From an archaeon (GTDB lineage Archaea > Iainarchaeota > Iainarchaeia > Iainarchaeales > 1-14-0-10-31-34): DNA of 32,000 nt. Below, piece after piece: positions 8,254-30,672 of this stretch. A program made the translations under genes and the position numbers. The stretch's first letter is position 1; each line of letters opens with the position of its first letter. Location of the stretch: NCBI GenBank assembly GCA_024277355.1, contig JAJRVL010000002.1:60001-92000 (forward strand), in the 5' to 3' direction. The notes beneath the pieces were generated by a model that saw nothing but the letters and a program-made list of their open reading frames with translations, was not told the DNA's origin and searched no databases.

Positions 8254-8324
8254 TGCGCCCACCGGGAATCGGACCCGGACATCGAGCTTGGAAGGCTCGC
8301 GTCATACCACTAGACTATGGACGC
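8254..8324 (-). tRNA. tRNA-Gly (anticodon UCC), no intron, CCA not encoded
   Basis: Manual cloverleaf: acceptor GCGTCCA/TGGGCGC, anticodon arm CGAGC-CTTCCAA-GCTCG, T arm CCGGG-TCCGATT-CCCGG. It is a GC-rich island in AT-rich DNA. Confidence 0.85.
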
Positions 8325-8503: not shown

Positions 8504-8658
8504 TGCGACCACCGGGAATCGAACCCGAGTCCGAAGCTAATTACAAAACCTTAATAATTAACATAAGTTTCCGCAAAGCGAAAACCTTTTTTTGGTAAAG
8601 CTTTTTTTCTAAAAAAGGTTTTTGGCAAGCTCCAATTCTACCACTGAACCATGGTCGC
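8504..8658 (-). tRNA. tRNA-Gly (anticodon GCC) with an ~84-nt intron at the canonical 37/38 position
   Basis: 5' exon GCGACCATGGTTCAGTGGTAGAATTGGAGCTTGCCA. 3' exon AGCTTCGGACTCGGGTTCGATTCCCGGTGGTCGCA. The acceptor, D, anticodon (GGAGC/GCTTC) and T stems all pair. The intron is approximately 8539..8622. Confidence 0.8.
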
Positions 8659-8715
8659 TTGATATAAAGAAATAAAAGGAAATAGTTTTTATTTTATTCT
8701 TTTTAATTTAGTTGA

Positions 8716-8883
8716 TTATTCGCCAAATATATCTGATTTTTCGTCAAATTTGACCCATTTGCTTTGGCTTGGTTCTAAAGAAACTTTTGAACAAGAAGGA
8801 CACTGCCATACATCAACAGTTTCTTTCCCTCTTTGTTCGGTTCTTTGATGCATCATTATTGAACCGCATCTTAAGCATTTCAT
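8716..8883 (-). CDS. Small zinc-ribbon protein (55 aa)
   Basis: My translation is MKCLRCGSIMMHQRTEQRGKETVDVWQCPSCSKVSLEPSQSKWVKFDEKSDIFGE, with CxxC...CxxC. It lies directly downstream of the 8890..9141 ORF. Confidence 0.4.
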   Translation of the reverse strand: MKCLRCGSIMMHQRTEQRGKETVDVWQCPSCSKVSLEPSQSKWVKFDEKSDIFGE

Positions 8884-8889
8884 TTTACA

Positions 8890-9141
8890 TCAACTTTGAC
8901 TGCAGCTTTCTCCTAACTGGCATCTTTCATGGCATTCAATCCAGTCGCATCCTATTGCGTCTGATTCAATTAATGCATCGCAGTTTGATGCACATTGTTT
9001 TGCTGTAATTATTTGTTCTTTTTGTAATTCTAATGCTCTTGTTGCTGTTCCTTGAGCATTATTTACTGTCCAAAAAGTAGTTACAATTAAAACAAAGAAT
9101 ACTACTCCTGCAAAAAGCATGGCTCTGTGTTTATTATCCAT
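8890..9141 (-). CDS. Membrane-anchored Cys-rich small protein
   Basis: N-terminal TM helix (AMLFAGVVFFVLIVTTFWTV) followed by a domain with 6 Cys. No recognisable family. Confidence 0.5.
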   Translation of the reverse strand: MDNKHRAMLFAGVVFFVLIVTTFWTVNNAQGTATRALELQKEQIITAKQCASNCDALIESDAIGCDWIECHERCQLGESCSQS

Positions 9142-9234
9142 TAAACCCCTCCAAAATAAAACATTGAATATAATAAAGAATTAGTGCTATTTAATGTTTT
9201 GGTTTTAGTGTTTTAATTAAAATATAAATGTCAG

Positions 9235-9306
9235 TGGGCCCGGGCGGAATCGGACCGCCAGTCTTCACGTTGTAAACGTGACGTCATACCACTAGACCAC
9301 GAGCCC
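9235..9306 (-). tRNA. tRNA-Val (anticodon UAC), CCA not encoded
   Basis: Acceptor GGGCTCG/CGGGCCC, anticodon arm TCACG-TTTACAA-CGTGA, T arm GGCGG-TCCGATT-CCGCC. Confidence 0.85.
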
Positions 9307-9398
9307 AGCTGCCTCTGTCAGCTGGCACCAGTGCAGAGCGTAAAGCTCTGCTAGCACGACTTTATGTCGTGCCTCGTACCGCACAGCCGAAACTGTGC
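9307..9398 (-). ncRNA. GC-rich multi-hairpin element between the dnaG stop and tRNA-Val (unknown structured RNA or leader)
   Basis: Four perfect hairpins: 9306-9324 (CAGCTG arms), 9333-9351 (GCAGAGC/GCTCTGC), 9354-9372 (GCACGAC/GTCGTGC) and 9381-9398 (GCACAG/CTGTGC). A 5-bp helix (9324-9328 with 9376-9380) encloses the middle two. That helix has a G-U pair only in the minus-sense RNA. Confidence 0.5.
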
Positions 9399-9400
9399 TT

Positions 9401-10720
9401 TTACATTACTAAAGTTTTTATTTCTGGTGTTTCTTCAATTTTGCCTTTTTTTACTCCAATAATGTATTTTACTGAATGTTTTTTTGCTTCTTCTAATAAT
9501 CTTTTGGTTATTATTCCATCCAATAAAACTGATTCAACATTTTTTTGTTCTTTTAATGCTGGAAGCAATTCTCTGATATTTGTTTTTTTGATTTCTTTTC
9601 CTTTGCTGTCAAGTATTAATGCCTGCATTTTTCCTTTTACTCCTGCCATTAAAGGCTCAAATCTTGTTTTTTCTTCTGGAGAAGCAACAACTTCAGGTTT
9701 AACTGGAACATATTCTGTTCTTGGCCTGTAATCCTGTCTAAATGAATTATCTTGTCTGCTGAATGAACTTGGCCTTCTTGAATCAAAGCTTCTTGTATTT
9801 GAATACCTTGAAGAAAAAGGTTTAGTGGTTCTCATGTCTGTTCTTGGTCTGCTGTTTTGAGTAAAACCAAATCTTGAATTTCTTGGTTTGATAAAACTTT
9901 GTCCTTTTGATTCTTCTGCTGGAATTCTTTTCCTTAAAGCCATTGTAATTTCTTTTTTTGCTAATTCTTCTACTTCTTTTCCATCTGGAGCTCTTGCAAT
10001 AAAATCAACTTTTGTTTGCTGCATTAATTGTCTTTTAATTAATTCTCCGCCTCTGTCTCCATCTGTAAATAAAATTATTGTTTTTGTTCTGCAGAAAGGA
10101 ATAATTGAATAAGGAATTTTTGAGCCGTTCATTCCCACAACGTTTTTTACTCCGTTTTTTAGTAAATTAATAACGTCTGCTCTTCCTTCAACTAAAATTA
10201 CTTCTTCTTCTTTTGCTATATCTGGACCACATGGAAGTTTTTCTGGACCCCATGACTGCACTTCTGAAGCTCTTGAGGATTCTCTTACTTCTTCTGCTAA
10301 TTCAGATGAAGCTGTTCTTTCACTTAAAAATTTATTTAGTAATTCTTTTGCTCTGTTTTTAATTTCTTCTCTTTTTTGTGTTCTTGTATCTTCTATTTGT
10401 TCTACGTGAAATTTTGATTCATATGGTCCTACTTTTTCAATTGATTCAATTGCTGCTGCTAAAATTGAAGTTTGAACCATATCTAAAGAAGAAGGAACAT
10501 TTAGTGTTCCATTAGTTTTCCCGTTTTCTGGTGCCGGAAAAATATCTATTCTTCCTATTTTTCCGTTTTTTTGTAGTTCTCTTAAATCTAAGTCTTCTCC
10601 GATTAATCCTTCGCTTTGACCAAAAACTGCTCCGACAATATCATGTTTGTCTACTAATCCTTGTATTTCAAATTTTGCTTTGATATTGTATTTAACTGTG
10701 TTAATGTAAGTTTTTCCCAT
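9401..10720 (-). CDS. dnaG: Archaeal DnaG primase-like TOPRIM protein
   Basis: Typical archaeal DnaG N-terminus (VGAVFGQSEGLIGEDLDLRELQKNGKIGRI) and TOPRIM domain (ILVEGRADVINL...FTDGDRGGELI). An S/R-rich disordered linker precedes the C-terminal domain. Confidence 0.9.
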   Translation of the reverse strand: MGKTYINTVKYNIKAKFEIQGLVDKHDIVGAVFGQSEGLIGEDLDLRELQKNGKIGRIDIFPAPENGKTNGTLNVPSSLDMVQTSILAAAIESIEKVGPYESKFHVEQIEDTRTQKREEIKNRAKELLNKFLSERTASSELAEEVRESSRASEVQSWGPEKLPCGPDIAKEEEVILVEGRADVINLLKNGVKNVVGMNGSKIPYSIIPFCRTKTIILFTDGDRGGELIKRQLMQQTKVDFIARAPDGKEVEELAKKEITMALRKRIPAEESKGQSFIKPRNSRFGFTQNSRPRTDMRTTKPFSSRYSNTRSFDSRRPSSFSRQDNSFRQDYRPRTEYVPVKPEVVASPEEKTRFEPLMAGVKGKMQALILDSKGKEIKKTNIRELLPALKEQKNVESVLLDGIITKRLLEEAKKHSVKYIIGVKKGKIEETPEIKTLVM

Positions 10721-10782
10721 TAATAATCACCTTTGTAATTTCTGCATTCTTTTTTTTTTTTGAATGCGTTTTTTTTCTAAAA

Positions 10783-11052
10783 TTAGAGTTTTTTATTTTT
10801 TTTTATTAATTCAAGGATTTCTTTTTTTGTTTTGTTTTCAATTAATAATTTTTTGTTTTTTGATTTTAATCCTTGTATTTCAATTTTTGTTTTAAAGATT
10901 TTTTGTAATTTTTCTTGTAATTCTTTATTGGCTTTTCCTTTTACTGCTTTTTCTTTTGTTTTTATTTCAAGGCAGTTAGTCCATTCATTAAAGCCTATTA
11001 TTTCAAATTTTTTTGAGCCTGGTTTAATATAAAGCTCGATGATTTTTTTCAT
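10783..11052 (-). CDS. DUF167 (YggU-like) protein
   Basis: IKPGSKKFEI...LEIKTKEKAVKGKANKEL is the DUF167 pattern. Confidence 0.65.
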   Translation of the reverse strand: MKKIIELYIKPGSKKFEIIGFNEWTNCLEIKTKEKAVKGKANKELQEKLQKIFKTKIEIQGLKSKNKKLLIENKTKKEILELIKKNKKL

Positions 11053-19496: not shown

Positions 19497-20444
19497 TCAG
19501 AAATCTTTTGAAGTTGGAAACCTCATTTTATTCATTTTATTGATTTTTTCAATTCTTAATTGTTTTTGTCTTTTGCTCCATAAATTATTTATTTTTTCCA
19601 TTAAAATTTTTTCATTTTTAATTCCTGTTTTTTCTAATTGTGCTAACACGTCAGCAGGATAATAATCCATGTTAACTAATTCACTTATTTTTATGCTGAT
19701 TTCTTTTGAAACGGTTTTTGGTTTAATTTTAATTTTTGTTTTGTTTCCAAAATAAAATCTTTTTCGCATTGCTTTTTCTTCTTTAGAAAATATTTCTAAT
19801 CTGGTTGAAATAACATTTATTCCTGATAAAGAAATGCTTACTTTTTTTTCAGCTAATTTTTTTTGAATTTCAATAAAAGCAGTTGGTTTTTTTGTGTTTT
19901 TTTGTTTGAATAATTCTACTGCAATTTTAATGTAATTTTTTGCAGGTATTTTGTATTTTATTTTAACTGAATTTCTTGCATATAATTTCCAAAGCTTGTT
20001 TTGTTTGTCTGCTGAAAAATATTTTTTTATTTGGTTTGGAATTGATTTTGAAATTAAATCAAAAAACCTTTTTTTTGGCATTATTTTGTTTTTTTTTCTT
20101 GTTTGTCTGTAAACAGAAAGTTTTGTCTGTCTTTTTGGTTTTTTTGGAGTTGTTCCTTTGTTTTCCCAGTAATTTTTAATTGCTATTTTGATTTCTCCGT
20201 GATGTAATTTTATTCCTTCTTTTATAAGTTTGTTTTTAATTGCATTAGCACTTAATTGTTGTTCAGTCATTTCTCCAATTTTTTTCATAGTTGTTTCATT
20301 AATTCTTTTAACTTTTGGTTTTATTTTAACTTCAGCAACCATGATTTTTTTGGTTTGTTGTATGCTAAAACTTGAATTAACTCTTGTTCTTTTGCTTAAG
20401 TGATTTTGTTTTAGCATTTTTTTTATTGGAACAGGTTTTTTCAT
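19497..20444 (-). CDS. Lysine-rich multi-HTH DNA-binding protein (paralogue P2)
   Basis: Repeated modules (LSANAIKNKLIKEGIKLHHGEIKIAIKNYW; FIEIQKKLAEKKVSISLSGINVISTRL; PADVLAQLEKTGIKNEKILMEKINNLW). Core RFFDLISKSIP. Divergent to nurA. Confidence 0.6.
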   Translation of the reverse strand: MKKPVPIKKMLKQNHLSKRTRVNSSFSIQQTKKIMVAEVKIKPKVKRINETTMKKIGEMTEQQLSANAIKNKLIKEGIKLHHGEIKIAIKNYWENKGTTPKKPKRQTKLSVYRQTRKKNKIMPKKRFFDLISKSIPNQIKKYFSADKQNKLWKLYARNSVKIKYKIPAKNYIKIAVELFKQKNTKKPTAFIEIQKKLAEKKVSISLSGINVISTRLEIFSKEEKAMRKRFYFGNKTKIKIKPKTVSKEISIKISELVNMDYYPADVLAQLEKTGIKNEKILMEKINNLWSKRQKQLRIEKINKMNKMRFPTSKDF

Positions 20445-20471: not shown

Positions 20472-20488
20472 AAATTTCACTGGCGTTT
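20472..20488 (+). promoter_or_regulatory. Site A of the shared element AAATTTCACTGGCGTTT (core TTCACTGGCG) upstream of nurA
   Basis: Identical 17-mer to 23032..23048. It is followed by AAACCTTTTTAAATTAAC (BRE/TATA-like). TTCAC starts 55 nt before the nurA ATG. Confidence 0.55.
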
Positions 20489-20530: not shown

Positions 20531-21628
20531 ATGAATGTTAATTCTTTGATTAATGATGCAGTAACTAAAATTAAAGGCAATGAAGGAAAGAAAAAAAACA
20601 TTGCAGGAAAATTAACTGCAGTAAAAAAAACAAATTTAAGTGAATTTAATTCAAAAGAATTATTTGAAGAAAACTTTTTTTTTGAAATTTCTCCTGCTGA
20701 ATTAAACAATAAAATTGCCGGAACTGATTCAGGGTTTGTTGGAAAAAGAATGCATTCAGTTGATATTGTTTTAATTAAAACAGTTTCAGCAGTTTTTTCT
20801 TATCAAAAAAACAAATTAACTAAAGCAGAATATTTTCCTTCTCCTACTGCTTTTCCTAAACCTTTTATTTCTTCTAATACTCTGGAAAATGATGAATTTC
20901 AGTCTAATCAGTCTTTAATGAGGTTAAAAGAAGAAATTTCTAATTCAATAGAAGTAATAGAAAAATTTAAGCCTGATTATTGTTTTTTGGATGGAAGTAT
21001 TATTCCGCAGTATGCTGAAACAAAAAAAGATTCACAGTTGTATTCAAATTATTCTAATTTAATTAAATTATTTCAAGAATTATATGAAACTGCAGAGCAA
21101 AACAAATGTAATTTAATTGCTACTGTGGAAGATTCAAGGGGTTCAAGATTCAGGAGTATTTTGCAGAAAGAAATCTTAGAAAAAAATAAGTTAATTGAGT
21201 CAGATGCATTAAATTCTTTTTTTGATTCAAGTTTACTTGATTATTTGCTTTCAAAAAATGAAAGAAGTTTTTGTTTTAATTACACGTCATCCATAAAAGA
21301 GCATCCGATTTTAAAGGATTTTAATGAAAAATGGGCTTCAAGAATAAAAACTTTTTATTTAAAGCCTTCAATGCTTGACAGGCCTTTAAGAATTGAATTT
21401 CTTCATAACGGAAAAAATTTAACTGAATACTGTAATGAAATTGCTTCTGTTGTTTTGTCTTTGTCTTCTTTGCATAAAGAATATGCTTATCCTTCTGTTT
21501 TAATTGAAGCAGATTTAAGGGCAAGATTAAAACCAAATGAAGTGGAAATTTTGTTTAATAAAATTCAGGATAAATTAGGAAGAGAAAATGCTTTTTTGGC
21601 TTTAAGGAGAAATTCAAGGCCGTTTTGA
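20531..21628 (+). CDS. nurA: NurA 5'-3' nuclease
   Basis: IAGTDSGF..., CFLDGSIIP and ATVEDSRGSRF match the NurA catalytic-motif layout. Confidence 0.8.
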   Translation: MNVNSLINDAVTKIKGNEGKKKNIAGKLTAVKKTNLSEFNSKELFEENFFFEISPAELNNKIAGTDSGFVGKRMHSVDIVLIKTVSAVFSYQKNKLTKAEYFPSPTAFPKPFISSNTLENDEFQSNQSLMRLKEEISNSIEVIEKFKPDYCFLDGSIIPQYAETKKDSQLYSNYSNLIKLFQELYETAEQNKCNLIATVEDSRGSRFRSILQKEILEKNKLIESDALNSFFDSSLLDYLLSKNERSFCFNYTSSIKEHPILKDFNEKWASRIKTFYLKPSMLDRPLRIEFLHNGKNLTEYCNEIASVVLSLSSLHKEYAYPSVLIEADLRARLKPNEVEILFNKIQDKLGRENAFLALRRNSRPF

Positions 21629-22354: not shown

Positions 22355-23005
22355 TTAATAAGAAGAATCTCTGGTTTCTCTTATAATCCAATCAACTGCC
22401 TTAAATCCGGTTAATTGCTGTCTTTCTCTTTTGCTTCCTAATGAAAAAGTTTTTGCGTCATGTTTGAATTCTGCTGCAATTTTTTTCCATATGTCTCTTG
22501 TAGAAAGCTTGTTGTTTTTTGTTAATTCAATTATTCTGTTTTCAATCAGGTTATTTCTTATTTTTGTTTTTCCTTTAGCTGAAGTTATTTTTGGAATAGT
22601 TGTTTTAGGAGTGCTTATTGTAATTGAATTAGTGTTATATTCTTTTGCTTTAACTAAACCTGTTTCGTTTGCAATTCTTCTTAATGAAGCATAACTCATT
22701 CCATCAATTTTTTTTGAAACAGCAACTAAATTAAGTTTTCCTTTTTTTGATTCAATCCATAAAACATTAACTGCATTAACAATGTTTTCCGGAGAAATAA
22801 TTTTAGCGTTTTTAACTGAATTTTTTGAATTACTTTTTATTAATTCAAATGTTTTTAATTTAATTCTCCTTGGAATTGTTTTATTAAATGATCTAAAAAA
22901 TTTAGGCAGAACATTTCGCCCCAAAACAACTTTTCTCGGTTTAAGCATTTTTTGTGTTCTTGCATTTCTTCTTCTTACAGTTAAATGAGCTCGATTTTTA
23001 TTCAT
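22355..23005 (-). CDS. Lysine/arginine-rich HTH protein (paralogue P3)
   Basis: Core KFFRSFNKTIP...GMSYASLRRIANETGLV and a second HTH (LSTRDIWKKIAAEF). Divergent to herA. Confidence 0.55.
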   Translation of the reverse strand: MNKNRAHLTVRRRNARTQKMLKPRKVVLGRNVLPKFFRSFNKTIPRRIKLKTFELIKSNSKNSVKNAKIISPENIVNAVNVLWIESKKGKLNLVAVSKKIDGMSYASLRRIANETGLVKAKEYNTNSITISTPKTTIPKITSAKGKTKIRNNLIENRIIELTKNNKLSTRDIWKKIAAEFKHDAKTFSLGSKRERQQLTGFKAVDWIIRETRDSSY

Positions 23006-23031: not shown

Positions 23032-23048
23032 AAATTTCACTGGCGTTT
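23032..23048 (+). promoter_or_regulatory. Site B of the shared element AAATTTCACTGGCGTTT upstream of herA
   Basis: Identical 17-mer to site A, followed by AAAACCTTTAAATAAC. TTCAC starts 56 nt before the ATG at 23092. With starts at 20444/20531 and 23005/23092, both divergent intergenic regions are 86 nt. Confidence 0.55.
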
Positions 23049-23091: not shown

Positions 23092-24627
<1,536 letters not shown>

Positions 24628-24652: not shown

Positions 24653-25234
24653 ATGCTAAGAAAACTTTGGAGAAAAACCCGAAAACCTTTTGTTAAAACT
24701 GTTCAGGGATTAAAAAAAGTTGAAGGTGGAAAAGAAAGAAGAAAAAAGTTAGCTGATTCTTTAAAACATGCAAGAAAAATAGATAAATGTATTAAAATTT
24801 CAAGATGGGGTCGTTTTGGAGAATCTTTTTTAGAACGTGATAAAAAAATTCTTCTTTCAAGAATTAATAATTTGCTTAATCGTGAAAAACAAGTTAAGGT
24901 AGTTAAAATTTTAGATTTAGGTTCTGGTTCAGGCGTTTATTGGGATAAACTTGTACAGGGAAACCCCAGACTTAAGAGGAAACTTAAAGTTGTTTGTATT
25001 AACCCTACAAGAACTCTTTTCAGAGAAACTGAAGTAAAAAGTCTTGTTTTAGGAAATCTTTTAACAATGAATAAAGCAAGATTTAAAAAATTTCTAAAAG
25101 AAAAAGGAAAATTTAATTTGGTTATTTCTTCTGCAGGCTCTTATCATTACAGTTTTGAAAAAGAATTATTTGATAGAAGAATAATGGATGTTTTAATTGA
25201 AAAAAAAGAATCTAATTTTTTGCTTTTAACTTAA
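24653..25234 (+). CDS. Small class I methyltransferase-like protein with a basic N-terminal tail
   Basis: Motif I ILDLGSGSGVYW. The K/R-rich first ~45 aa suggest nucleic-acid binding. It lies 25 nt downstream of herA on the same strand. Confidence 0.5.
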   Translation: MLRKLWRKTRKPFVKTVQGLKKVEGGKERRKKLADSLKHARKIDKCIKISRWGRFGESFLERDKKILLSRINNLLNREKQVKVVKILDLGSGSGVYWDKLVQGNPRLKRKLKVVCINPTRTLFRETEVKSLVLGNLLTMNKARFKKFLKEKGKFNLVISSAGSYHYSFEKELFDRRIMDVLIEKKESNFLLLT

Positions 25235-25486
25235 TCAAAAACCTAATTTTTTTAGTTTTGCACTTGGATCATCATTAATATATTCTTCTAATGCTTTTTC
25301 TAATTCATCTTCTTTTTCAAAACTTAATCCTTTTTTTGTTTTACCGCTTAATTCTTCAATTCTTAATCTTACTGCATCTCTTACTGCTTCAGTCCTTGAA
25401 GCATAAAAACCATTTTTAACTAATTTGTCAATTTTTTCAATGTCTTTTTTTGAAAAATTAATTAACACAGAAATTTTTGAATTCAT
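25235..25486 (-). CDS. Ribbon-helix-helix (CopG/Arc/MetJ-type) DNA-binding protein
   Basis: MNSKISVLINFSKKDIEKIDKLVKNGFYASRTEAVRDAVRLRIEE has the beta-strand/helix/helix pattern. I chose the ATG at 25486 (M6 of the listed ORF). Confidence 0.7.
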   Translation of the reverse strand: MNSKISVLINFSKKDIEKIDKLVKNGFYASRTEAVRDAVRLRIEELSGKTKKGLSFEKEDELEKALEEYINDDPSAKLKKLGF

Positions 25487-25530
25487 AATACTAAAACACA
25501 ATTAAACTTAATAAATATATACTAAAATAC

Positions 25531-25552: not shown

Positions 25553-25565
25553 ATTTGTTGCTTTC

Positions 25566-25575
25566 TTCACCGGCA
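25566..25575 (+). promoter_or_regulatory. Site C of the shared element (TTCACCGGCA) upstream of the PolB-like gene
   Basis: It matches TTCACYGGCR. It starts 58 nt before the ATG at 25624, and a TATA-like TTTTTAAAGAACTTAAAT lies between. Confidence 0.45.
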
Positions 25576-25623
25576 GTCAGGAGTTGGGTTTTTGTTTTTA
25601 AAGAACTTAAATTTGTTTCTTGT

Positions 25624-27105
25624 ATGCCTTTAACTTCCAATACCTTTTATTTATCCAATGCGGAATATGTTGAAAAAAAGAAAAGAGTTTCAGTTGAATT
25701 CTCTAACTTAAATGAAACAAGAAGAATTTCTTTTCCTTTTATTCCTTATATTATTCTTCATAAAAGTTTGCTGGACAAATCTTTTTTTGATTTCCTGAAA
25801 AAAAAGAAACTTAAAACCGAAAAAATAACTAATGGCTTTAAAGTTTTTTCAAGTGATTTTTCTTTTTTAGAAAAAGTGAATTCTTTTTTTGAAAAAAAAG
25901 GGATTTTACTTCCTTCTGAAACACAGTTTTTGTTATTAAAGAACTGGAGTTTTTTTGATGGATTTGAATTAAATGAAAATAATGAATTTGAAAAAAAAGG
26001 TTTTATTGAATTCCCTGAATTAAAACCTGAGTTCAGCTATAATTCCTTAAAAGAAAATGTTTCTGAAATGCTTTCTTTTTCTGATACTTCCGGAAAAAAC
26101 TTTTTAAATAAAATTATTCTTTCAAATGTTTTATGTTTAAAGCTGAATTATCTTAATGTTTCTAAATCGTCAATGCTTGATTCTTTTATTGAATTAATTT
26201 TATTTAGAAATAATTTTGCTTTTAATAAATCAAAACCAAAATTTGATTCAGGTTTTATTAAAAAATATTCAGGGAAATTAAAGGAAATTGATTTTTCTTT
26301 TGTCTGGCCTGTTTTGTTTTCTTTTCCTTTTCATAATTTAGGTTTTGATTCAGTTAATTGTTCCTGCTGTAAGCCGAAAGAATTTAATGAAAGAAATATT
26401 CTTCCTTCTTCTTTGATTGAAGTTAAATTCAATGAAGATGCCATTTATTTTGAATCATCTAATACTGACTGGAGTTCTTTTTTCCATGAAAAGGCTTTAG
26501 GAAAAGAAAAAAGAATTAAAAGAATGAATGAATGGCGTTTAAGAAACATTCCTTCAGGTCCTTTTTTCAGAAATGATGTTTTAAGAATTCCTTTAAATGA
26601 TGCATTAAAACTAAAAGAAGAAGAAAAAATAGTTTTCTTAAATGATCATAATTTAGTTTGGAGCTGTACTAAAAAAGAATGTTTTATTTCAAAAGAATTA
26701 ACTGAATTAAACAAAAAAACAGTTTTGTTTGATAAAAAAATAAATGAATTGGAATCCGGTTCAATTAAAGATAATGGAATTGCTTTTTCTTTGTTTCTGG
26801 AAAAAAATCCTGAATTTCATTTTTTCTCTGAATATAAAAATGTATTAAAAACAATTTTTTCTTCTGTTCCTTTTCATTTATCTTCTCATTCTTCTGCATT
26901 TTTTGATTTTGTTCTTTCAAATTCAATTAAATCTGTTTTTTCTTCGGTTTTAACTAAATTCAGGGAATTTTCAGTGTCTAATTCAAGTCCTTCTTTTATT
27001 ACAAAAAAAGGTGTGTTAGTTGATTCTGATAATCCTCTTGATTTGCTTACTGAATTCTCTAAAAACCAGAATATTCCTGTTCCAGAGCTTTCTATAAAGA
27101 ATTAA
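25624..27105 (+). CDS. Miniaturised, probably catalytically inactive family-B DNA-polymerase-like protein
   Basis: By-eye alignment to archaeal PolB gives four matches. The N-terminus FYLSNAEYVEKKKRVSVEF...FPFIPYIIL resembles ILDxDYxxxxGKPVIRLF...FxPYFY. SSMLDSFIELILFRNNFAFNKSKP resembles [25 protein letters not shown]. Motif A is IDFSFVWPVLFSFPFHNLGFDSVNCSCCK versus [27 protein letters not shown]. The motif C position reads KIVFLNDHNLVW versus KVLYIDTDGLYA. The exonuclease domain and motif B (KxxxNSxYG) are not detectable. I prefer the start at M24 of the listed TTG ORF. Confidence 0.5.
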   Translation: MPLTSNTFYLSNAEYVEKKKRVSVEFSNLNETRRISFPFIPYIILHKSLLDKSFFDFLKKKKLKTEKITNGFKVFSSDFSFLEKVNSFFEKKGILLPSETQFLLLKNWSFFDGFELNENNEFEKKGFIEFPELKPEFSYNSLKENVSEMLSFSDTSGKNFLNKIILSNVLCLKLNYLNVSKSSMLDSFIELILFRNNFAFNKSKPKFDSGFIKKYSGKLKEIDFSFVWPVLFSFPFHNLGFDSVNCSCCKPKEFNERNILPSSLIEVKFNEDAIYFESSNTDWSSFFHEKALGKEKRIKRMNEWRLRNIPSGPFFRNDVLRIPLNDALKLKEEEKIVFLNDHNLVWSCTKKECFISKELTELNKKTVLFDKKINELESGSIKDNGIAFSLFLEKNPEFHFFSEYKNVLKTIFSSVPFHLSSHSSAFFDFVLSNSIKSVFSSVLTKFREFSVSNSSPSFITKKGVLVDSDNPLDLLTEFSKNQNIPVPELSIKN

Positions 27106-27201: not shown

Positions 27202-27408
27202 ATGCATGAATTTTTGACAAGATTTGAAACAACAAGATTAATTAGTGCCAGGTCATTCCAGCTGGCTTTAGGTGCTCCTCCTTTAGTTAAAACAACTAAA
27301 GGAGAATCAATGCTGGATGTAGCAAAAAAGGAATTAGAAAACAAGAAAATTCCATTAGCAGTTATAAGAAAATTTCCTTCAGGGGAAATAACTAAAGTTA
27401 ATCCTTAG
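27202..27408 (+). CDS. rpoK: RNA polymerase subunit K (Rpo6/omega-like)
   Basis: LTRFETTRLISARSFQLALGAPPLV...PLAVIRKFPSGE is the Rpo6 signature. Confidence 0.88.
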   Translation: MHEFLTRFETTRLISARSFQLALGAPPLVKTTKGESMLDVAKKELENKKIPLAVIRKFPSGEITKVNP

Positions 27409-27416
27409 GTGATTTT

Positions 27417-27602
27417 ATGGGTAAATCTGTTCCAAAAGGCGTAAAAACTAAAGCTGAAATCTTAATGAAAGAAGATGATGGTTTTTCAAGAGATTTTGAA
27501 AAAAATAAGGAAATAATTAATTCTTTTGATCTTAGTTTTTCAAAGAAAATAAGAAACCTTATTGCAGGATATGTCAGCAGAAGAAAAGGCGTAAAAGAGT
27601 AA
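27417..27602 (+). CDS. rps17e: Ribosomal protein S17e
   Basis: MGKSVPKGVKTKAE...SKKIRNLIAGYVSR is the eS17 pattern. Confidence 0.8.
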   Translation: MGKSVPKGVKTKAEILMKEDDGFSRDFEKNKEIINSFDLSFSKKIRNLIAGYVSRRKGVKE

Positions 27603-29980
27603 TTAATTAATTGAATTTTCTTTTGGAATTGAACTGCCTTCGTTTTCTTTGTCTCTTTCTATTTCATAATAACTTCCTGAAGCAGCTTTTTCCATTTCAG
27701 AATCATGAGTTATTATAAAAATCTGGTCAACTAAAGAAGGAAGATGTTCTTTCATCATTTTACTTAATTTTGCTGTTGCATTTTTATCTAAATTATGTGT
27801 TGGTTCATCTAAAATTAACCAGCTTAAATTCTGAGTTAATACAAGAGAAAAAGCAACTCTGATGCAGATTGCTGCAGCACTTCTTTCTCCTCCTGAAAGA
27901 ATTCCTTCAACCCTGATCCATTTTCCATTTTTTTCTTTTACTTTTATTTCGTAATTTCCTTCTTCTATTTCCATTTTAGCTGAAGTAAAATCGCCGTAAG
28001 GATAAATTTTATTCCATACGTCATCCATTGCTTCATTTATTGTGTCAATCATTTCTTTTCTTAATTCTGCCTGAGTTGCATTTAAGGCATTGTTAAATAA
28101 TGCTAATTCAGATAAAATTTTTTCATGTAATTCAGTTTCTTTTTTTAATTCATTAATTCTGTTTTCTTCTTTTTCTATTTTTTCAATGTTTAATTTAATG
28201 CTTTCAATTAATTCAGCAGTATTTTTGATTTCTTTTTCAGAGAATTCAACTGAAGATTTAACTGAATAAACAATTTCTTTTTTTTTGCTGAAAGCATTTT
28301 CTATATAGCCAAGTGTTTCTTTTTTTTCTGTTAATTCTGATAACTCTTTTTTCCAGTTTTTGGATTTAAAAAATTCTTTTATTAATTCAATTTCCTGTTC
28401 AATTTTTTTTATTTCGTTTTCTTTTGTTTGTATTTTTTCTTCGTTTACTTCTTTTTCCAGTTTTTCTTTTAATAAATTGCTTTCATTCAATTTTTCTTTT
28501 ATTAATTCAATTTGTTTTTGTGTTTCTTTTATTTCATTTAATCTTTCTGTTAAACCTTTAATTTTGTTTTTTTCTTCTTCAAGTGAAAAAACTTTGTTTT
28601 CTAATATTGTTTTGGTTTTTTTTATTTCTTTGATTTCCAGCATGGTTTTTCTTTCATCTTCTGTTAAACCTTTGTTTATTATTCCTATTTTTTCTTCTTC
28701 TTTTTCATAAGAGTTAATTAATTCAATTTTTTTTTCCTGACTTAATTTTGTTGAACAAACAGGACAGTCTGATTCTGATTTAGTTAATTTTTTTATGTTT
28801 TCTTCTAATTCAGCAACTCTTTTTTCGTTAACTAAAATTCCGTTTTTTGTTTCAAAAACTTCTTTTTCAAGTTCTTCAATTCTTTTTTCTTTTGCTTTTT
28901 TTTCTTCCTGTATTTCTTTTATTTTTTTTTCTGTTTCTTCTTGTTTTTCTTTTATTTTTTCTTCTGAGTTAATTCCTGAAAGAAGTTCGGTTTTTCGGTT
29001 TTTTTCTTTTTCAAGAAATTCTTTTTTTTCGTTTTCTGCTTTTATTCCTGCTTTAATTGCAGAAAGTTCTCTTAATTTTGTTTCTATTTCGTTTTTTTCT
29101 TTTTTTAATTCAATTAATTTATTTTCTTCGTTTTCTGGTTCTTTGTTTTCAATGTCTTTTCCTTTTATTTTTTTTTCTGTTTCTGATATTTTTGTTTCAA
29201 GTTTAATTTCTTTTTCTTTTATTTCTTTGAATTCTTTTTCTTTTTTTTCCAGTATTTCTAATTCAGTTGCGTGTTGTTTTAATTCGTTTTTTTCTTTCTC
29301 TATTTTTTCCTGTGTTTCTTTTAGTTGTTTTTCTTTTTCTTCTTTTTTTGGTTTAATTCTTTTAATGCTTTATCATCAAATGAATCAGAATGTTTTTTGA
29401 TTAAGTCTTTTTTGTCTTCATTTATTTTTTTTATTCTGTTTATTACTGAAATATTTGTTTTTCTTGCGTTTTCGTATTTGTCTAACTCTAAAATTTCATC
29501 AAACTTTTTTTTTCTTTGCATTGGACTTAATTTTAAAAAAAAGTCAATTTGGTTTTGTTCTGAATAAACAGCTCTTGAAAATAAATCGTAATTCATTTCA
29601 AGTATTTCTTCTATTTTTTCGTTTACGTCGTTTGGTTTTGGTCCTGCAATTAATTTTCCTTCTTCTAATATTTTTGCCTGATTAGAGTTTTTTCCTGCAA
29701 AAACTGTTCTTTTAATTAAATAATTTTTGTTGTTGTAGTCAAATTCTAATTCAACTTTTGATTCATCCATTTGATTAGGTTTATTCATTATTATTTCATT
29801 TAAGCTTACGGATTTAGAATTTAATGCAGGATAAGTGCCGAATAAAGCATAACACATGGCTTCAATTACTGTGCTTTTTCCTGCTCCAATTATTCCGGTT
29901 AATACATTAGTTCCTTTATTAAACTGAAATTCTGTTTCTTTATGGCTTTTCCAGTTAAACAATTTTACTTTTTTAATCAT
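27603..29980 (-). CDS. rad50: Rad50 ATPase, interrupted by one frameshift at 29343..29349
   Basis: N-lobe (29980..29321 frame): KSHKETEFQF..GIIGAGKSTVIEA. The downstream frame is open from ~29350 to 27603. It carries a Met-free coiled coil (which is why the track starts at 28643), the zinc hook CPVC (28755..28766), the signature LSGGERSAAA, Walker B LILDEPTHNLD and the H-loop FIITHD. Confidence 0.85.
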
Positions 29981-30598: not shown

Positions 30599-30672
30599 GG
30601 GCTCGTGGCGCAACTGGATAGCGCAGTCCGCTTCGGACGGACAGGCTGGGGGTTCGACTCCCTCCGAGCTCA
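30599..30672 (+). tRNA. tRNA-Arg (anticodon UCG), CCA not encoded
   Basis: Acceptor GGGCTCG/CGAGCTC, D arm GCGC-AACTGGATA-GCGC, anticodon arm GTCCG-CTTCGGA-CGGAC, T arm GGGGG-TTCGACT-CCCTC. Confidence 0.88.

Follow-up and report, generated by a model that had tools for sequence, protein, structure and literature searches.

What is encoded by the gene that lies between herA and rad50 in an Iainarchaeal genome, and what might its product do there? The gene occupies positions 25624-27105 (+) of the window, by which we mean the whole 32,000-nucleotide, AT-rich (~27% GC) stretch of assembly GCA_024277355.1 analysed here (contig JAJRVL010000002.1, positions 60,001 to 92,000). A sequence-only reading of this stretch had taken it for a miniaturised and degraded family-B DNA polymerase (PolB) that is under selection and linked to HerA-NurA, and this core reading is supported by the predicted fold of the protein, an alignment to a canonical PolB (E = 3e-8), conservation, synteny and a promoter box. 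We demonstrate here that the protein, henceforth mini-PolB, is a paralogue with the PolB fold whose ancestor was a PolB with a lineage-specific NCSCC motif and that, as judged from the family alignment, its catalytic residues have been lost across the whole family. With a probability of roughly 0.6, mini-PolB serves the HerA-NurA/Rad50 machinery as a non-catalytic adaptor derived from PolB.

The mini-PolB gene is uninterrupted and encodes 493 amino acids (aa) from its ATG, and the homologues begin at the same Met, in agreement with the intact open reading frame (ORF) of this length that had been reported. The open frame extends in the 5' direction to a TTG at 25555. However, the ATG at 25624 was preferred as the start codon, because the homologues share this Met and because a TATA-like box is located ~21-29 nt upstream of it.

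Fold, family and polymerase motifs of mini-PolB

Searches with the single mini-PolB sequence gave no match in Pfam at E <= 1 and none in the PDB. DNA_pol_B (PF00136/PF03104) was not detected at E <= 1 in mini-PolB, which falls below the gathering threshold, or in any of the 77 members of the family alignment from which all per-residue conservation counts (x/77) given below were taken. The family has no Pfam model and is annotated solely as 'hypothetical protein'. A word-indexed homologue search yielded 19 clusters, all of them 'hypothetical protein' and labelled Diapherotrites, Micrarchaeota or 'archaeon'; re-searching with a profile added none, and an exhaustive search gave 154 representatives at 50% identity (131 with E <= 1e-10), labelled almost entirely Iainarchaeota/Diapherotrites. 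Nearly all of the homologues are 420-530 aa in length and align with mini-PolB from end to end; none reaches the size of a canonical PolB. The closest one is 70% identical to mini-PolB, and the full-length conservation holds down to ~20% identity. In GTDB genomes the family was present in ~50 loci, most of which belong to Candidatus Iainarchaeum or Diapherotrites (phylum Iainarchaeota; DPANN archaea), and the complete genome CP010424.1 is among the genomes carrying it.

The AlphaFold2 model of mini-PolB, built on 14 homologues, had a mean predicted local distance difference test score (pLDDT) of 83.7 and a predicted template modelling score (pTM) of 0.82. The comparison of this model with the PDB by Foldseek returned 142 matches at E <= 1e-3. 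The best 50 matches were all family-B polymerases (probability 1.00, E ~1e-7, template modelling score TM(query) ~0.5), including those of KOD, Pab, Tgo, Pyrobaculum (5mdn) and African swine fever virus as well as Pol epsilon and E. coli Pol II; the predicted structure thus has a PolB fold. When the 77-member profile was searched against 177,635 PDB sequences, a single match was obtained, the PolB 5mdn_A (E = 0.012).

A separate canonical PolB exists in the phylum. Locus L051, from an Iainarchaeum metagenome-assembled genome, encodes an 801-aa PolB (8639-11044, +) with LDFKSYHPS as motif A, KIVLNSVYG as motif B and YSDTDS as motif C, all of them intact, as is Exo I. The family profile aligned with this protein by hhalign in three collinear segments: residues 166-257 to 371-475 (probability 95%, E = 3e-8), residues 347-488 to 472-600 (E = 0.0015) and, weakly, residues 38-132 to 52-162. 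The alignment to Pyrococcus furiosus (Pfu) PolB, the query sequence of which was checked against 3a2f_A, agreed with that to the L051 protein. These alignments, together with the PolB fold, bear out the collinearity of the N-terminal domain, the pre-palm region and motif A with archaeal PolB that had been noticed before. Moreover, the NCSCC motif shared with the canonical Iainarchaeal enzyme points to the lineage's own major PolB as the source of mini-PolB.

Mini-PolB keeps the N-terminal domain, the palm and the fingers in canonical order. Its parts are listed below (positions in the window, strand, description and, in brackets, the evidence or distinguishing residues).

25624..27105 (+): mini-PolB ORF, 493 aa (homologue starts, TATA-like box, AlphaFold model)
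25624..26019 (+): N-terminal domain, residues 1-132 (model and weak hhalign segment; near-invariant 'PE(R)QFL', similar to canonical 'FVKRFLID')
26020..26112 (+): short linker in place of the exonuclease domain, residues 133-163 (low pLDDT around 135-137; hhalign)
26113..26358 (+): pre-palm helices, motif A strand (IDFSFVWP, D223) and 'HNLGFDSVN', residues 164-245 (E = 3e-8)
26359..26370 (+): C246-S-C248-C249, with the first three of four invariant cysteines (77/77; NCSCC motif also in canonical Iainarchaeal PolB)
26371..26658 (+): family-specific insertion, residues 250-345 (most of the near-invariant residues: N258, H288, R297, P310, G312, P313, D326, L330)
26539..26658 (+): candidate GINS-B-domain-like core of the insertion, residues 306-345, 'PSGPFFRNDVLRIPLNDALKLKEEEKIVFL', including 'NDH' at 340-342 (Foldseek, Pfam, profile, hhalign)
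26659..26667 (+): W346-S-C348, with the last of the invariant cysteines (counterparts by alignment: canonical PolB C473, Pfu PolB C443)
26683..26880 (+): fingers, two long helices, residues 354-419, with degenerate motif B K409-TIF-SS-V-PF (model, alignments)
26908..27093 (+): second palm half, residues 429-490, with the motif C hairpin 457-466 SFI-TKK-GVLV (model, hhalign)

The 3'-5' exonuclease (Exo I-III) has been deleted: canonical residues ~163-368 (~206 aa) are replaced by a linker of ~30 aa, which confirms the deletion previously estimated at ~250 aa. The thumb (~200 aa) and the KxY motif are also absent. The alignment stops at canonical residue ~600 of 801, and all members of the family end within ~5-30 aa of this residue. 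With an insertion of ~98 aa the lengths add up (801 - 206 - 200 + 98 = ~493).

In the pre-palm region 'ELILFRNNFAFNKSKP' of mini-PolB aligns with canonical 'LLLKSFELNVLAPNKP', and motif A 'IDFSFVWP' aligns with 'LDFKSYHPS'. The motif A Asp had been described as retained and is indeed present in mini-PolB (D223), with Val at the position of the steric-gate Tyr; across the family it is Asp in 56/77 members, Asn in 11, and Asn, Ser or Thr in 21/77. The DxD of motif C was found in the hairpin turn of none of the 77 members, the positional equivalent in mini-PolB being T460-K461-K462. The sequence-only reading had placed motif C at 'NDH' (340-342), which was wrong: these residues sit in the insertion, upstream of the fingers, and motif C corresponds to the hairpin 457-466. 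The same reading found motif B not recognisable. This holds for the consensus, the Lys of which is present in 9/77 members and the Asn and Tyr-Gly of which lack conservation, but not for the segment as such, since a degenerate K409-TIF-SS-V-PF aligns with KxxxNSxYG.

The invariant positions of the alignment are P41, C246, C248, C249, G312, P313 and C348, and those conserved in at least 90% of the members include R100, Q101, F102, L103, N238, N258, H288, R297, P310, D326, L330 and W346. Apart from P41 the invariant residues belong to the cysteines and the insertion, which implies that selection acts there and not on the polymerase active site.

Other candidate motifs were dismissed. 'FFDGFE' as a remnant of Exo I was withdrawn, since its counterpart in the alignment precedes Exo I, and 'VDSD' (466-469) as motif C was rejected, since it follows the second hairpin strand and is not conserved (Asp in 11/77 and 17/77 members). 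No PCNA-interacting peptide (PIP) box was seen at the C-terminus, where the tails of the members continue the palm strand.

The four cysteines and the palm insertion

In the canonical Iainarchaeal PolB a compact C464-x-C466-C467-x5-C473 follows directly after motif A. Mini-PolB contains the same four cysteines, with ~98 residues inserted between the third and the fourth. In the alignments C249 pairs with Pfu C429 and C348 with Pfu C443, the two cysteines of the Thermococcales disulfide, and in Pol epsilon the corresponding site holds the CysX iron-sulfur (Fe-S) ligands that flank the P-domain. The conservation pattern suggests that the four cysteines of mini-PolB may bind a metal. The CxCCx5C knuckle after motif A of the L051 PolB is in its own right a candidate metal site in the palm of an active archaeal PolB. 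In PMC7544198 the P-domain and CysX are said to occur in orthologues of Pol epsilon 'but not in other PolBs'; a putative metal site of this kind, found also in the active PolB of the lineage, bears on that statement. W-x-C348 was also considered as the 'RWYC' that follows motif B in Thermococcales, and this reading was rejected, as both alignments and the helix order favour the pre-fingers Cys (Pfu C443).

The insertion holds most of the near-invariant residues of the mini-PolB family, and this best-conserved part of the protein does not resemble a polymerase. When residues 218-356 were modelled separately, the pLDDT was 85.3, and the best Foldseek match of this fragment was the C-terminal domain of T. 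kodakarensis Gins51 (5ghr_B/D; probability 0.98, TM(target) 0.70, E = 0.22). Further matches at E 0.2-1 included 3anw_A, human Psf2 (2e9x_B), S. solfataricus GINS (9moj) and many structures of the Cdc45-MCM-GINS (CMG) complex. Among 74 insertion fragments scanned against Pfam, PSF2_N was detected in nine (best 4e-4) and Gins51_C in three (best 0.004), and any other Pfam family matched at most one fragment. The top PDB match of the insertion profile was the B-domain of Drosophila Psf2 (E = 1.2), in which 'sipvGPfsrgqkaeiplaDalklekegkvkil' was paired with 'ygPVGPFRAGFPVFVPLWMATHLRKQQKCRIV'. When aligned by hhalign with the validated sequence of human PSF2, the same motif was matched to residues 32-61 (pairwise E = 5e-4). 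The GINS-matched motif contains the invariant G312-P313, the near-invariant D326 and L330, and A327 (68/77).

Because these four weak tests agree and the matched motif holds the invariant residues of the family, a GINS-B-like module is likely. We consider the homology of the insertion to the GINS B-domain quite probable, and the resemblance in the predicted fold more probable still. GINS B-domains are docking modules for GAN/RecJ-Cdc45 and DP1N (PMC5100581, PMC9023282), and by analogy the insertion may serve as a protein-docking module. No Sld5/A-domain Pfam match characteristic of a GINS subunit was detected among the members or the insertion fragments, and the module is embedded in the PolB palm. 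The possibility that the insertion is a homologue of the Pol epsilon P-domain was not supported, no Pol epsilon chain being found among the top 50 Foldseek matches of the fragment.

Gene neighbourhood and the common promoter box

To describe the neighbourhood, ORFs were clustered from 51 loci and the window, and the counts refer to loci with sufficient flank. The conserved order is nurA > (HAD) > herA > mini-PolB > (rpoK, rps17e) < rad50. The herA gene was located <= 4 kb upstream of mini-PolB in 33/36 loci, nurA <= 8 kb upstream in 32/36, and a convergent rad50 <= 4 kb downstream in 33/34; the order nurA-herA-mini-PolB-rad50 was present in at least 89% of the loci, at ~30% protein identity. 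No MCM, GINS, PCNA, primase or polymerase gene was a conserved neighbour in the clustered loci. The corresponding features of the window are as follows.

20531..21628 (+): nurA, with box TTCACTGGCG at 20476-20485
23092..24627 (+): herA, with box TTCACTGGCG at 23036-23045
25566..25575 (+): box TTCACCGGCA upstream of mini-PolB, common to nurA and herA (window motif count, cross-locus composite)
25595..25603 (+): TATA-like box TTTTTAAAG, ~21-29 nt before the ATG, putative promoter (like layout upstream of nurA and herA)
27603..29980 (-): rad50, convergent with mini-PolB, with CPVC zinc hook; frame broken in a poly-A run near 29320

An upstream element common to mini-PolB, nurA and herA had been claimed from the sequence, and it stands. 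TTCACYGGCR occurs at three sites in the window (20476, 23036 and 25566) versus 0.06 expected, with no others. Each site is located 48-58 nt before the start codon of nurA, herA or mini-PolB and ~20-30 nt upstream of a TATA-like box, and has the GC-rich core CACCGGCA. Across the loci, the composite ACYGGCR-N12-30-TTTAWA was enriched as well, being found upstream of mini-PolB in 19/50, of nurA in 7/36 and of herA in 6/45 cases, and upstream of other genes in 3/723. In the case of rad50, the composite was present in 1/41, the CAC-prefixed forms of the box in 0/41 and the bare core ACYGGCR in 11/41. The specificity of the box is striking and supports the view that nurA, herA and mini-PolB are co-regulated.

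No Mre11 phosphoesterase signature was detected by a motif regular expression within +/-10 kb in the 51 loci, and tblastn with a validated P. furiosus Mre11 query gave no significant match in the 862 kb that these regions comprise. The sole calcineurin-like neighbour was a 213-aa phosphoesterase (c19), encoded at L001:18831-19472 (-) and in five other loci, ~8 kb downstream of the gene cluster. It was rejected as a cryptic Mre11, since it is not Mre11/SbcD-like and its best PDB match was aq_1956. Mini-PolB itself is no calcineurin-like phosphoesterase with motifs I-V; its fold is that of PolB.

Downstream of mini-PolB in the window follow rpoK (Rpb6, 68 aa, 27202-27408, +) and rps17e (61 aa, 27417-27602, +). 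The constant gap of ~450-650 bp between mini-PolB and rad50 in most loci suggests that the rpoK/rps17e pair is conserved there. The rad50 of the window is a single gene, the frame of which shifts in a poly-A (Lys) run at ~29320-29330, and the later part, in the other frame, holds the CPVC hook; this break reflects either an error of assembly in the homopolymer or a true shift of frame.

Divergent from mini-PolB, with the shared box in the intergenic region, lies an 88-aa ribbon-helix-helix (CopG/RHH_8) gene (25235-25501, -), which is present in the four closest loci only and is a possible local regulator. Between herA and this gene, a 193-aa ORF (24653-25234, +) has weak methyltransferase-like matches (E = 0.008-0.06) and is not conserved across loci. 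Lysine-rich ORFs of 216 aa (22355-23005, -) and 315 aa (19497-20444, -) flank nurA and herA; they had no significant Pfam match and were not conserved in the other loci. A 439-aa Toprim-domain protein (DnaG-like; 9401-10720, -) is the sole other replication-type gene of the window. There are four tRNA genes (8254-8324, 8504-8658 and 9235-9306 on the minus strand, 30599-30672 on the plus strand), of which the 155-nt one presumably contains an intron, and the local rise of GC content at 8-10 kb is due to tRNA genes.

Proposed role, rival explanations and known systems

The adaptor reading that we prefer can be put as follows. Mini-PolB is a paralogue of the Iainarchaeal replicative PolB that has been turned into a non-catalytic protein: the 3'-5' exonuclease, the thumb and the catalytic carboxylates have been lost, and a ~98-aa module, the core of which resembles a GINS B-domain, has been acquired between the third and the fourth Cys of the inherited CxCC...C knuckle. 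A metal (Zn or Fe-S) bound by the four cysteines would clamp the insertion at its base. What remains of PolB may bind DNA, recognising a 3' end, single-stranded DNA or its junction with double-stranded DNA, and mini-PolB would be an adaptor or scaffold of the HerA-NurA/Rad50 pathway that resects double-strand breaks for recombination. This role is suggested by the putative DNA recognition and docking functions and by the co-localisation and apparent co-regulation with herA, nurA and rad50.

Several observations weigh against such a role. The conserved neighbours include the housekeeping genes rpoK and rps17e and those for aEF-1beta and the CCA-adding enzyme, and inheritance, rather than function, might account for part of the conserved gene order inside one phylum. 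The mini-PolB gene lies 60-2765 bp from herA and has its own promoter, so that the genes are not strictly one operon. The genes used to test the promoter pattern were those from which it had been derived, the loci are related, and the p-values are thereby inflated. Every single GINS-B test was statistically weak (E = 0.2-1 or pairwise 5e-4), the weight lying in their agreement, and metal binding is deduced from the invariance of the cysteines.

It is conceivable, though rather unlikely, that a dead PolB with a GINS-like module is instead a structural subunit of the replicative assembly of helicase and polymerase, much as the inactive PolB module at the C-terminus of Pol epsilon forms a bridge to CMG, and that the adjacency to herA, nurA and rad50 is inherited and has no direct functional meaning. 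The docking of GINS B-domains to CMG and polymerases (PMC5100581, PMC9023282), the housekeeping nature of the downstream rpoK and rps17e and the separate promoter of mini-PolB would agree with this scaffold. Two members also match Pfam DUF1744, the inactive C-terminal module of Pol epsilon, but these weak matches are far below significance. Moreover, the conserved neighbourhood lacks the replication genes looked for, and the promoter box is specific to nurA, herA and mini-PolB (3/723 in other genes).

Less probable again is that mini-PolB performs the role of Mre11 as a direct partner of Rad50 and/or HerA, with the nuclease activity provided by NurA or by a nuclease recruited via the GINS-B-like module. 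Its position between herA and rad50 is the place of mre11 in herA-mre11-rad50-nurA clusters (PMC2288612, PMC3326311), neither the regular expression nor tblastn found an Mre11-like ORF around the 51 loci, the c19 phosphoesterase is not Mre11-like, and Rad50 is intact in the orthologues, with its zinc hook. However, the search covered +/-10 kb around the loci, and Mre11 may simply be encoded elsewhere. Mini-PolB is without a nuclease fold, a Rad50-binding motif was not identified in it, and rad50 is without the CAC-prefixed box and nearly without the composite (0/41 and 1/41), although the bare core is present in 11/41. We regard as doubtful to the same degree the phylum-wide version of this idea, in which Rad50 and HerA-NurA work with a dead, thumb-less PolB rather than with Mre11; this PolB would read the DNA end, and its Cys-clamped GINS-B-like module would recruit a RecJ/GAN-type nuclease or PolD. 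If that were true, a 'repair CMG-like' assembly would be built on HerA, as a free-standing archaeal counterpart of the Pol epsilon PolB scaffold. The locus raises the question of whether end resection by Rad50 and HerA-NurA in Iainarchaeota proceeds without a linked Mre11.

That mini-PolB is a cryptic polymerase, primase, nucleotidyl-transferase or nuclease acting through D223 together with N258, H288, R297, E303 and D326 appears very improbable. Several polar residues of the insertion are conserved in at least 90% of the members, weak activities have been reported for PolB2/Dpo2, which is also predicted to be dead (PMC4104785), and piPolB functions without the first Asp of motif C (PMC7544198). 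However, the palm contains no conserved acidic pair (DxD in 0/77, and D223 replaced by Asn, Ser or Thr in 21/77), the thumb that grips the primer-template is missing, motif B is gone, and the conserved residues map to the GINS-B motif, a protein-binding and not a catalytic fold. A decaying pseudogene or functionless relic, to which the degraded catalytic motifs and the frame-shifted adjoining rad50 of the assembly might point, is effectively refuted by the conservation data (154 clusters at 50% identity in which the ORF is intact, with residues that never vary and with similarity that spans the whole protein down to ~20% identity), and the confidently predicted fold also speaks against it.

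Compared with canonical archaeal PolBs (the 801-aa L051 protein and those of Pfu, Tgo and Pyrobaculum), mini-PolB has a collinear N-terminal domain, pre-palm region, motif A, fingers and second palm half, and with the Iainarchaeal enzyme it also shares the segment 'HN(I/L)G(P/F)(D/E)(T/S)xNCSCC' with the lineage-specific CxCC...C motif. It differs from them in the absence of the exonuclease, the thumb, the motif C carboxylates and motif B, in the ~98-aa insertion and in falling below Pfam thresholds.

PolB2 is much longer and keeps exo-like and thumb regions, whereas mini-PolB has the GINS-B-like insertion, lacks the exonuclease and the thumb, and is confined to Iainarchaeota. PolB2/Dpo2 proteins are archaeal PolBs that have been predicted to be inactivated (Makarova et al. 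2014, PMC4104785; group B2 of Kazlauskas et al. 2020, PMC7544198), and mini-PolB resembles them in being a PolB paralogue with replaced catalytic residues that is located near recombination and repair genes and has a proposed non-catalytic or damage-response role. However, PolB2 retains one Asp of motif C (PMC7544198) and the mini-PolB family none. Moreover, PolB2 neighbours an inactivated RadA and arCOG07300 (PMC4104785), whereas mini-PolB neighbours HerA, NurA and Rad50: the recurrent neighbours in the 51 loci were NurA, HAD, HerA, Rad50, rpoK, S17e, aEF-1beta and the CCA-adding enzyme, with no RadA-like cluster among them, and thus the neighbourhood is not that of PolB2.

The inactivated C-terminal PolB of Pol epsilon (DUF1744) is likewise a dead PolB scaffold that contacts a hexameric motor and has GINS-type interfaces (PMC7544198, PMC9022971). 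It is, however, part of a chain that also includes an active polymerase and a Cys-rich C-terminal domain, which binds the B-subunit, whereas mini-PolB stands alone, carries its GINS-like fold inside the palm and has no significant sequence relationship to this module. With the P-domain/CysX of Pol epsilon (PMC7544198) mini-PolB has in common that cysteines directly following motif A and one Cys shortly ahead of the fingers flank the base of a palm insertion of 85-100 residues, at the same topological site. In mini-PolB C246, C248, C249 and C348 (77/77) flank the 98-aa insertion, which is a positional analogy to CysX only; the ligand spacing differs (CxCC in mini-PolB versus CxxCx8C), mini-PolB is catalytically dead, and the likeness is probably a convergence at a permissive loop. 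With the GINS B-domain (Gins51 C-terminal, Psf2 N-terminal) the insertion appears to share the fold and the signature 'GPF...(V/I)PL.(L/D)A..L....k..I', but in mini-PolB this module sits within a polymerase palm and is not joined to a GINS A-domain.

Inactivated PolBs are thus known, in PolB2 and in the C-terminal half of Pol epsilon. A PolB without thumb and exonuclease or with a GINS-like insertion is described in neither PMC7544198 nor PMC4104785, where none of the inactivated PolBs has the combined features of mini-PolB, and full-text literature searches combining these features found no description. The new combination consists in the loss of the exonuclease and the thumb, a four-Cys insert resembling GINS-B and a phylum-wide linkage to HerA-NurA-Rad50. 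If mini-PolB is an adaptor, it would represent a new recycling of the polymerase fold as a scaffold for a hexameric DNA motor, which would parallel the arrangement of Pol epsilon and CMG in the context of repair.

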